Virus record (IMG/VR): IMGVR_UViG_2718217859_000005
From: a virus
Taxonomy: Duplodnaviria > Heunggongvirae > Uroviricota > Caudoviricetes
Direction: 5' to 3' (one strand)
Length of the DNA: 45,085 nucleotides
Both the position numbers and the translations under genes were made by a program. Each line of letters opens with the position of its first letter. Position 1 is the first letter of the stretch. The notes under the pieces were generated by a model, which had not been told where the DNA came from, searched no databases, and saw only the letters and a program-made list of their open reading frames with translations. Shown piece after piece: positions 15,529-15,838 of the stretch.

Positions 15529-15604
15529 GGCCCTTTAGCTCAGTGGTGAGAGCGAGCGACTCATAATCGCCAGGTCGCTGGTTCAAATCCAGCAAGGGCC
15601 ACCA
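15529..15604 (+). tRNA. tRNA with CAU anticodon (Ile2/lysidine-type or Met), ileX-like
   Basis: 76 nt; 7-bp acceptor stem GGCCCTT/AAGGGCC, anticodon loop CTCATAA, T-loop TTCAAAT, encoded CCA. Closely resembles E. coli ileX as recalled. Confidence 0.85.
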
Positions 15605-15605
15605 A

Positions 15606-15682
15606 CCGCCACTAGCTCATCAGGAAAGAGAGTCAACCCTTTAAGTTGAGAGTGCGAGGTTCGAGTCTCCGGTGGCGGTCCA
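15606..15682 (+). tRNA. Degenerate tRNA-like element (possible pseudo-tRNA; anticodon-loop CCTTTAA)
   Basis: Perfect acceptor stem (CCGCCAC/GTGGCGG) and anticodon stem (TCAAC/GTTGA), but a mismatch in the D-stem and in the T-stem, and C instead of U at position 33. Confidence 0.4.
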
Positions 15683-15684
15683 GT

Positions 15685-15760
15685 GCCGACTTAGCTCCGT
15701 AGGTAGAGCAACTGACTTGTAATCAGTAGGTCACCAGTTCGATTCCGGTAGTCGGCACCA
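15685..15760 (+). tRNA. tRNA-Thr (anticodon TGT), thrU-like
   Basis: 76 nt; acceptor GCCGACT/AGTCGGC, anticodon loop CTTGTAA, T-loop TTCGATT, encoded CCA. Confidence 0.85.
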
Positions 15761-15763
15761 TAT

Positions 15764-15838
15764 GCGGGTATCGTATAATGGCTATTACCTCAGCCTTCCA
15801 AGCTGATGATGCGGGTTCGATTCCCGCTACCCGCTCCA
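15764..15838 (+). tRNA. tRNA-Gly (anticodon TCC), glyT-like
   Basis: 75 nt; acceptor GCGGGTA/TACCCGC, anticodon loop CTTCCAA, T-loop TTCGATT, encoded CCA; near-identical to E. coli glyT as recalled, with a compensatory acceptor-stem change. Confidence 0.85.

Follow-up and report, generated by a model that had tools for sequence, protein, structure and literature searches.

Shiga toxin (Stx)-converting phages of the 933W type carry the tRNA genes ileZ-argN-argO between the gene for the late antiterminator Q and the lysis genes, a set for which codon supply is reportedly the classical explanation (Plunkett et al. 1999). Phage tRNAs are now seen as counters to tRNA-cutting immunity, and the tested cases come from large virulent phages such as T5 and T4. 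Here we analyse a related cluster in the IMG/VR virus record IMGVR_UViG_2718217859_000005, a 45,085-nucleotide (nt) stretch of caudoviricete DNA that we call, at its full length, the window. An earlier note on this DNA had described four tRNA-like genes downstream of Q, three of them regular and the second (15606–15682, hereafter el2) degenerate. ARAGORN calls four consecutive, co-oriented tRNA genes on the plus strand, at exactly the position given there (15529–15838), with gaps of 1, 2 and 3 nt between neighbours and a 3′ CCA encoded in all four. As the note had it, the regular members carry the anticodons CAU (Ile2 type, labelled tRNA-Ile by PGAP), UGU (Thr) and UCC (Gly); they score 65–73 bits with the Rfam tRNA model RF00005, for which the gathering threshold is 29 bits. 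el2 was missed by a gathering scan of the whole window and passes the threshold marginally, at 33.1 bits (E = 3e-05), when a 421-base region is scanned alone. Elements of its type recur in the same slot in hundreds of phage and Escherichia coli records, an occupancy that puts el2 far beyond chance.

The origin of el2 emerged from an alignment with argN, which the earlier note had called for and which proved to be the key step. Members 1 and 2 are ~88% identical to ileZ-argN of Stx phages, and el2 is homologous to argN throughout. The two share C1:G72, U73, A20, the D arm and the T arm, both follow a one-base spacer, and ARAGORN reads argN, in the same slot, as Arg(tcg). The anticodon arm has been rewritten, from UCAGC-CUUCGAA-GCUGG in argN to UCAAC-CCUUUAA-GUUGA in el2. 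Because the alignment and the ARAGORN slot agree, we read el2 as an argN paralogue in which the anticodon UCG has become UUU, and a switch of anticodon on an argN-derived body is almost certainly how it arose. With the anticodon UUU it retains A20 and has lost C35, the main determinant for the arginyl-tRNA synthetase; the loss of C35 makes it a derivative of the argN family and not a tRNA-Arg. Wholesale import of the anticodon arm from another tRNA was considered and rejected, as the 17-mer was found only in the el2 body and its five other matches are non-tRNA sequence.

Fold covariation was assessed on 47 different slot-2 sequences (32 Arg-type and 15 Lys-type alleles). Standard pairs occupy 96.2% of the cells in this alignment, against 28–53% when the partner strand is slid. 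All 15 Lys-type alleles carry three two-sided switches (7:66 from U:A to C:G, 27:43 from C:G to U:A and 30:40 from G:C to A:U); within the Lys clade, pair 4:69 occurs as C:G, U:G and U:A, and the A51:C63 mismatch has been repaired to A:U in one subclade. Pairing is best in the anticodon stem (99.6%), with the acceptor stem at 97.3% and the T stem weakest at 90.6%. These patterns suggest a lineage that kept a tRNA shape while changing its anticodon, through few events on few branches, all in the same direction.

The helix figures also bear on the proposal that el2 keeps its shape as a processing scaffold, so that RNase P can free tRNA-Ile2 and tRNA-Thr on either side, and that it decodes nothing. 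Spacers of 1–3 nt would suit such a role, since the 5′ cut of each tRNA by RNase P frees the preceding 3′ end, as would the perfect acceptor stem with its high pairing and the encoded CCA, for RNase P needs mainly the acceptor and T arms. However, the anticodon stem, for which RNase P has no need, is the best-paired helix and holds two of the three switches, the T stem, which RNase P uses, is the poorest, and loci that lack slot 2 altogether are common (Met-Arg(tct), or Thr-Gly alone). We therefore consider a scaffold role quite improbable.

The el2 family is widespread. Of 5,426 complete E. coli genomes, 798 carry it, roughly one in seven (~15%), and most of the four-gene cluster is present in 600; in a species-representative collection, the only matches were one in E. 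coli and one in Shigella flexneri. The exact major allele occurs in 279 complete E. coli genomes and is labelled tRNA-Lys by PGAP in every sampled row, so that its Lys label is already in the databases. We also sampled 227 IMG/VR loci with two exact patterns, the first of which demanded an intact anticodon arm. After the ileZ-type gene, 83 of these continue with a Lys-type slot 2 followed by Thr and Gly, 60 with Arg(tcg)-Arg(tct), 26 with Arg(tct) alone and 11 with a Lys-type slot 2 followed by Arg(tct). The major allele is probably made as a stable tRNA-like RNA.

In the window copy, the acceptor stem (CCGCCAC/GTGGCGG) and the anticodon stem (UCAAC/GUUGA) are perfect, and the conserved tertiary bases are all present: T8, A14, G18G19, the T loop TTCGAGT (U54-U55-C56 and A58) and CCA. 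The D loop has C16. The anticodon loop reads C32-C33-U34-U35-U36-A37-A38, with C33 (position 15639) where the U-turn calls for U33, as in 14 of the 15 unique Lys-type alleles. The D stem contains a G10:A25 mismatch (A25 at 15631), and the T stem an A51:C63 mismatch (15657/15669) and a G52:U62 wobble (U62 at 15668), so that the 7/4/5/5-base-pair cloverleaf is not fully paired. This agrees with what the earlier note had read from the letters. The note had, however, treated the defects as a single phenomenon, whereas two layers can be told apart. Across 84 four-gene loci, C33 and A51:C63 show next to no variation, and the loop is invariant in 14 of the 15 unique Lys-type alleles. By contrast, A25 and U62 of el2, together with C14 of the neighbouring tRNA-Thr, each occur only in the window and in one of the 83 other loci.

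The private layer has a measurable cost. Minimum free energy (MFE) folding proved uninformative about tRNA-likeness, since not even the thrU copy takes the cloverleaf as its MFE structure, and the energy of an imposed cloverleaf was used instead. For the window el2 this energy is −16.7 kcal/mol against an MFE of −23.0, a gap of 6.3; for the major allele it is −22.3 kcal/mol, 2.7 above the MFE and within the range of 0–4.5 seen in the bona fide tRNAs tested. A25 and U62 account for a loss of ~5.6 kcal/mol, and the Rfam score falls from 40.4 bits in the consensus-type allele to 33.1 bits. Because PGAP uses tRNAscan-SE, its annotation was taken as a proxy for the tRNAscan-SE verdict. In a 100% identical record (strain 52F4) PGAP annotates tRNA-Ile, tRNA-Thr and tRNA-Gly and leaves slot 2 blank; the major allele, at ~40 bits, is called tRNA-Lys. 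The second element is therefore neither a high-scoring canonical tRNA nor devoid of a tRNA fold. The shape of the D stem at G10:C25 is read by TsaD, and this is the pair that is broken here. Given the private A25 and U62, the drop in score, the absent PGAP call and the broken G10:C25 pair, the window copy is rather likely to be impaired. Among the origins that the earlier note had offered for the degenerate member, a non-canonical tRNA fits the family and a decaying gene fits this copy alone; a remnant of an integration target found no support and was rejected, as the element always lies inside a promoter-led tRNA operon. The observation itself is confirmed and the interpretation partly supported: the family appears to be a non-canonical but coherent tRNA, of which the window holds a damaged instance. 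For the window by itself, this is a modest result: the element is common and its copy here slightly broken.

PGAP names slot 2 tRNA-Lys only for the major allele and its nearest variants, and variants of two or three bases are silently dropped, with the consequence that tRNA counts of lysogens differ for trivial reasons, a change of one or two bases being enough. Slot 2 is likewise blank for the U12-deleted allele of enterohaemorrhagic E. coli (EHEC) and for alleles with three differences.

The loop itself looks like that of a tRNA-Lys(UUU). The host tRNA-Lys loop, which we take to be CUUUUAA, differs from the CCUUUAA of el2 only at position 33. In addition to U34-U35-U36, el2 has gained a 36-UAA-38 motif that argN lacks and that is strictly conserved in bacterial ANN decoders (PMC13276492). 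U33 is also regarded as conserved in bacterial elongator tRNAs (PMC13276492). A rare Lys-type allele with U33, seen in one sampled locus (L128) and ~20 E. coli genomes, has the loop CUUUUAU, a perfect T stem and U4:A69, and PGAP calls it tRNA-Lys. With argN as outgroup, its U38, A26 and U4:A69 are derived, and it lacks A38 of the 36-UAA-38 motif, so that neither allele is fully canonical. The C33 form is ~40 times commoner and may owe this to riding with the Thr-Gly cassette, which is absent from L128. Cytoplasmic initiator tRNAs of some eukaryotes have C33 and still work; they bind the P site directly, whereas el2 would be an elongator of the bacterial type.

We favour the following account, which as a whole falls a little short of an even chance. 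A mobile, self-promoted tRNA operon would reside in the Q–lysis accessory region of lambdoid phages of E. coli and Shigella. Slot 1 would be an ileZ-type tRNA-Ile2, slots 3 and 4 captured copies of host thrU and glyT from between which tyrU was later deleted, and slot 2 an argN paralogue whose arm was rewritten to UUU with its stems paired throughout. The major form of el2 would be transcribed and then released by RNase P and 3′ trimming enzymes; the lysyl-tRNA synthetase (LysRS) would do most of the charging, through U34-U35-U36, and the product would be used as a phage-supplied tRNA-Lys in lytic growth. For its use in translation as a Lys tRNA, we judge the chances evenly balanced. Such a tRNA would escape the nucleases AriB of PARIS and Old of phage P2, which cut host tRNA-Lys at C40|A41, and the other three members would top up the decoders of A-ending codons. 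In the window lineage, two extra rare mutations would weaken the D and T arms, and the tRNA-Thr would have been damaged as well.

The nuclease part of this account follows from published cleavage rules. AriB cuts at U36-A-A-U39-C40|A41; the substitution U39A abolishes cleavage, A41C and U16C impair it, and the resistant tRNA-Lys of phage T5 has C16 (PMC12409363). P2 Old, the enzyme behind P2–lambda interference, mainly destroys tRNA-Thr(UGU), prefers a paired CNG motif at 28–30 and 40–42 and nicks tRNA-Lys once, at C40|A41 (PMC12445682). Where host tRNA-Lys has U39-C40-A41 and U16, el2 has G39-U40-U41 and C16, and it contains no paired CNG motif. argN has CAG/CUG at 28–30/40–42 and el2 has CAA/UUG with no C40, the motif having gone with the switch of G30:C40 to A30:U40. 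None of the published AriB and P2 Old determinants is found in el2, and with an anticodon stem and D loop unlike those of host tRNA-Lys it should be resistant to both of these Toprim enzymes. We would place the PrrC cut at 33|34 and build no argument on it; the targets of RemAIN are not stated in the HepS paper. The AriB study writes the PrrC site as 35|36 (PMC12409363). Most coliphage tRNAs with the right anticodon, in a library of 245 tRNAs, rescue cells from nuclease toxicity, and the authors of the P2 Old study noted that lambda would need to acquire resistant tRNAs to escape (PMC12445682). A further nuclease, that of Gifsy-1, is triggered by lambdoid tail tips and also cuts Thr tRNAs (PMC13043305).

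The closest functional parallel is the tRNA-Lys(UUU) of T5, which is likewise a phage UUU decoder with non-host bases at 39–41 and C16, the positions that block AriB (PMC12409363). T5, however, is virulent and encodes 24 tRNAs, and the resistance of its tRNA-Lys and the rescue of infection by it are experimental results (PMC12409363). el2 belongs to temperate lambdoid prophages and has a body of Arg origin, with C33, U73 and a mismatched T stem, and its resistance would be a prediction from sequence. In contrast to the companion resistance of the T5 type, the tRNA-Thr(UGU) of the cluster keeps the host anticodon arm and there is no tRNA-Asn(GUU). We regard nuclease escape as a rather doubtful selected benefit of el2. 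Still less likely is the full version of this idea, in which temperate lambdoid phages would have built a nuclease-proof tRNA-Lys from an Arg tRNA to replace host tRNA-Lys under attack by AriB, P2 Old or PrrC-type enzymes, with C16 and perhaps C33 contributing and with a second switch, of thrU to UUU (described below), marking recurrent selection. Were it true, anti-defence tRNAs would extend to temperate phages, with this the first described in temperate coliphages.

A number of observations weigh against a tRNA-Lys that serves the phage, and in particular against a role in defence. U73 stands where tRNA-Lys has the discriminator A73, which contributes to LysRS recognition (one subclade has G73), and neither U73 nor C1:G72 belongs to the Lys identity set. 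C33 may cripple decoding; U33C was without effect on the anticodon nuclease gamma-toxin (PMC2275089). The anticodon arms of the Thr and Gly members are identical to those of the host, including the AriB site UAAUC|A and the CUG/CAG motifs in Thr, so these two should be as cleavable as the host tRNAs, and the cluster does not form a coherent resistant set. ARAGORN finds no tRNA-Asn(GUU) in it. Nor does this phage have a gene for Gam, the known trigger of P2 Old: a link through Gam was discarded because the early-left arm consists of the integrase, DUF5406, SPFH and helix-turn-helix (HTH) proteins and cI, with no Gam or Red. PADLOC returned nothing credible for ten neighbouring proteins, including the DUF4236 and TerB-like proteins (the SPFH and DUF5406 proteins lie outside this set). 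AAA codons are not enriched in the phage. The literature searched yielded no expression, charging or cleavage data for any member of the el2 family.

Others of the adverse points concern decay, and they define the most serious competing explanation, in which el2 lost its function with C33 and A51, persists as a dead passenger between useful genes in a recombining cassette, and has decayed further in the window. C33 breaks a near-universal rule. Polarised with argN as outgroup, the C33 and A51 of the common allele are both derived, in a ‘degrading’ direction; ~20 genomes have a U33/G51 allele. Model scores are low (33–40 bits), although argN itself reaches only 43–45.5 bits and many argN alleles carry mismatches, so that the whole argN/el2 family may be sloppy. 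Nucleotide diversity in el2 (π = 0.0215) is about twice that of its neighbours (0.010–0.013). Roughly as many stem changes within the Lys clade break pairs (loss of U12, G24A, G24U, C25A and G52A) as keep them, and disruptive alleles, among them deletions of the anticodon arm, have arisen several times; throughout the widespread EHEC lineage PPompW, U12 is deleted. Most non-major alleles are dropped by PGAP, and the region is full of dead relatives, namely argN/argO hybrids and argN genes with a replaced anticodon arm. The IMG/VR loci, moreover, are partly clonal and not independent samples. Against a dead passenger stand the three compensatory switches relative to argN, the fourth within the clade and the repair of an A:C mismatch in one subclade; the near-invariant loop; a major allele that is identical in 279 genomes and has a normal cloverleaf energy gap; and the distribution of the variants, those that preserve pairs being found in 5–18 loci and the disruptive ones, the U12 deletion excepted, in one or two. 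As the compensatory events could predate C33, these points only weaken the dead-passenger explanation, which we hold to be unlikely yet to be reckoned with.

Were el2 non-working, the region would still show phage tRNA cassettes that are assembled from host operons, recombine and decay. If the favoured account, of a phage operon that supplies its own tRNA-Lys, is right, el2 would be a natural elongator tRNA that tolerates C33 and a natural case of tRNA gene recruitment. In a laboratory selection, E. coli tRNA-Arg(UCU) was reportedly turned into a working tRNA-Thr(UGU) by one anticodon change (Saks et al. 1998). The likeness lies in a foreign anticodon on a tRNA body, which here has appeared twice (argN from UCG to UUU and thrU from UGU to UUU). 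Unlike that single point mutation, el2 is natural and involves two anticodon bases, position 33 and two stem pairs, and its charging with lysine is putative. In the literature searched we found no account of where el2 came from, of its C33 or of how it fits the AriB and Old rules, and nothing relevant on the function of ileZ, argN and argO, on prophage-encoded tRNAs or on C33 in phage tRNAs.

Codon use was compared to see what supply of decoders could account for. Over the 44 open reading frames (ORFs) of the window, ATA, ACA and GGA occur at 8.7, 16.1 and 14.4 per thousand; in E. coli K-12 they are about half as frequent (~4.4, ~7.1 and ~8.0). This twofold excess means that codon supply explains three members of the cluster; AAA, at 32.9 per thousand, is not enriched, and el2 is left unexplained. 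In its simplest form, codon supply would make el2 an ordinary supplementary tRNA, a working tRNA-Lys that adds AAA/AAG decoding capacity in late expression and to which nucleases are irrelevant. All four anticodons do read A-ending codons (AUA, AAA, ACA and GGA), and AAG is somewhat enriched (14.7 per thousand against 10.3 in E. coli). However, AAA is already among the commonest host codons, host tRNA-Lys is encoded by several gene copies and not in short supply, and a supplementary role explains neither the Arg body and its non-host anticodon arm nor C33. We consider it improbable.

Another decoding role would be to tune a frameshift, with tRNA-Gly(UCC) and the C33 tRNA-Lys(UUU) setting the ratio of tail-chaperone forms at the slip site G GGA AAG. 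A lambda-type site of this sequence does lie in frame six codons before the stop of a G-like ORF, followed by an ORF in the −1 frame and, just downstream, the tape measure gene, and these two anticodons are reportedly the very ones that read the GGA and AAG of the slip site (Levin, Hendrix and Casjens 1993). The match of anticodons is probably pure coincidence, though: lambda frameshifts at the same site without any phage tRNA, the Thr-Gly cassette and el2 are separate in many phages, and nothing ties C33 to slippage. This role is very improbable indeed.

Relative to ileZ-argN-argO, then, the cluster occupies the same Q–lysis slot behind the same promoter module, and its first gene is identical to ileZ over the matched stretch; even the A51:C63 mismatch is found in argN of phage F349. 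It differs in its slot 2, which has UUU instead of UCG, C33 and the three switched pairs, in the replacement of argO by host-derived thrU and glyT, and in the absence of stx.

The three regular members are close to host sequences, as the earlier note had stated: the Thr gene is one base from thrU, the Gly gene two from glyT, and member 1 ~90% identical to host copies that PGAP also labels tRNA-Ile. An identical copy of member 1 is present in 2,729 E. coli records, where PGAP calls it tRNA-Ile; tRNA-Ile2 (CAU) decodes AUA once it carries lysidine. Aligned with the host thrU-tyrU-glyT operon, the Thr and Gly genes are 98.1% identical as two pieces, and tyrU is missing. Compared with the full host operon, thrU-tyrU-glyT-thrT, tyrU and a 116-base spacer are gone and a 3-base spacer is left, and thrT and tufB are absent. 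The one change in Thr, A14 to C at 15698, falls on a universally conserved position, the partner of U8, and lowers the Rfam score from 73.8 bits in the A14 allele to 67.5 bits. Gly differs by one compensatory pair, C6:G67 to U6:A67, a form seen in about 11–13 of 84 loci. Two loci (L023 and L085) retain behind Thr the thrU-tyrU spacer of the host (TCAAGTCC) together with the 5′ half of tyrU, a fossil from which we conclude that the module was captured from the host operon and lost tyrU afterwards. The Thr-Gly pair also travels alone in other lambdoid phages, for example after stx in phi467.

In five loci (L037, L055, L071, L075 and L102), the third gene is thrU-derived with its anticodon changed from TGT to TTT, and it has the loop CTTTTAA, A26G and a body with A73; in the same haplotype, el2 has its T-stem mismatch repaired and carries G73. 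This would be a second, independent switch to a Lys anticodon and, on one haplotype, a single evolutionary event.

Broken argN genes are found in many Stx-type phages, at ~25 IMG/VR loci (for example, L138 and L213; also L206, L140 and L164). One form has GAAGAGCAGACGACACGATAACAGGGTTGTTGGTG in place of the anticodon arm, and another joins the 5′ half of argN to the 3′ half of argO. Neighbouring tRNA genes seem to recombine often.

A sigma-70-type promoter module precedes the cluster (Table 1). After the −10 element comes a G+C-rich discriminator that ends 9 nt before the mature 5′ end of tRNA 1. The promoter scan alone was not significant (11 sites found against 11.3 expected), and the case rests on a comparison of the 70 bases before the ileZ-type gene in L001–L004 and the IMG/VR loci. 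Of the 63 different upstream sequences, which come from 12 unrelated far-upstream contexts, 54 fit TTGNNN-17-TATTAT, always the same distance from the gene; the −35 element before the ileZ-type gene is TTGCAA, TTGCAG or TTGATT, and the spacer is 17 or 16 nt. The sequence farther upstream is not conserved. A module held at constant distance in front of the genes while the sequence beyond it varies marks the cluster as a self-contained transcription unit, for which the module presumably acts as promoter; expression of the tRNAs of Stx phages may thus not depend on the late promoter. Some Stx-type loci have a terminator hairpin directly against the −35 element. Downstream of the cluster, the first intrinsic-terminator-like sites are two strong hairpins with a T run behind each, at which the tRNA unit may end; 13 terminator-like sites were found in the region against 5.0 expected.

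Table 1. Coordinates of the tRNA cluster and of other features of the window
Feature	Position	Strand	Basis or remark
Sigma-70-type promoter module	15492–15528 (−35 TTGATT, 15492–15497; 16-nt spacer; −10 TATTAT, 15514–15519)	+	Consensus scan
tRNA 1, ileZ-type, anticodon CAU, tRNA-Ile2 kind	15529–15604	+	ARAGORN; Rfam 72.5 bits; PGAP tRNA-Ile
el2, argN-derived tRNA-like gene, anticodon UUU	15606–15682	+	ARAGORN Lys(ttt); Rfam 33.1 bits
tRNA-Thr(UGU), host thrU copy with A14C	15685–15760	+	ARAGORN; Rfam 67.5 bits
tRNA-Gly(UCC), host glyT copy with U6:A67	15764–15838	+	ARAGORN; Rfam 65.6 bits
Two intrinsic-terminator-like hairpins	16105–16124 and 16146–16163	+	Consensus scan; T run after each
Q late antiterminator, 121 amino acids	12396–12761	+	PF06530, E = 1.9e-51; PGAP ‘antiterminator Q family protein’ in a near-identical record
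Phage-21-type holin, start of lysis cassette	17581–17877	+	PF04971, E = 2.1e-32
DUF4236 protein, 395 amino acids	12929–14116	−	
TerB-like protein	16306–16731		
SPFH/Band 7 and DUF5406 proteins	2451–3278 and 2039–2410	−	Adjoin integrase
ORF6N/KilAC antirepressor gene	6771–7625		
Mechanically called ORF	7852–8514		Ash/Rha domains
isrK Hfq-binding RNA	7906–7982		59.2 bits
C4 antisense RNA	8007–8094		83.3 bits
STnc100 small RNA	16934–17109		93.7 bits
G-like ORF	31991–32422		
Slip site G GGA AAG	32398–32404		In frame
−1 frame ORF	32449–32694		
Tape measure gene	32842–35421		

Beginning at its integrase, the window, a lambdoid prophage of E. coli, continues with cI and cro-like genes, an antirepressor region, a DnaB-type helicase gene and Q. 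The placing of the cluster downstream of Q, in the earlier note, was right in that Q lies upstream and loose in that it is ~2.8 kb away, with three genes between. These are the DUF4236 gene, on the opposite strand, a TrmB-like gene and an AraC-type gene. The tRNA genes are followed by the TerB-like gene, the small RNA (sRNA) STnc100 and the holin gene, and then by terminase, head and tail genes, so that the cluster sits in the accessory region between Q and the lysis genes. The layout of an Stx phage without a toxin gene, which the note had remarked on, is borne out by the closest phage record for the surroundings, phiSTEC1575-Stx2k: it has the same TrmB-like and AraC-type genes, then ileZ, argN, argO and stx2k, and in the window no toxin gene follows the tRNA cluster.

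STnc100 lies between the accessory genes and the holin gene and occupies the same place after stxB in Stx phages (4668–4879 in L002 and 4615–4809 in L004), which indicates that the toxin slot is filled here by other cargo. The idea that STnc100 is a late-promoter leader, which would put the tRNAs outside the late operon, was abandoned because it lies downstream of stxB in Stx phage F349. STnc100 is linked to PasD sRNAs in a 2026 preprint, which takes tRNA matches nearby for remnants of integration; unlike in that reading, the tRNAs of this cluster are phage genes with a promoter.

Among the neighbouring genes, the one for the DUF4236 protein runs against the flow between Q and the tRNAs, the TerB-like gene follows the tRNAs, and the SPFH/Band 7 and DUF5406 proteins adjoin the integrase. 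Self-immunity, in which the prophage would encode a tRNA nuclease and el2 would protect against it, was rejected on the PADLOC blank for the ten neighbouring proteins. The RNAs isrK and C4 lie side by side within a mechanically called ORF, downstream of the ORF6N/KilAC antirepressor gene, and form a c4-antirepressor immunity module of the P1/P7 type in a lambdoid prophage.

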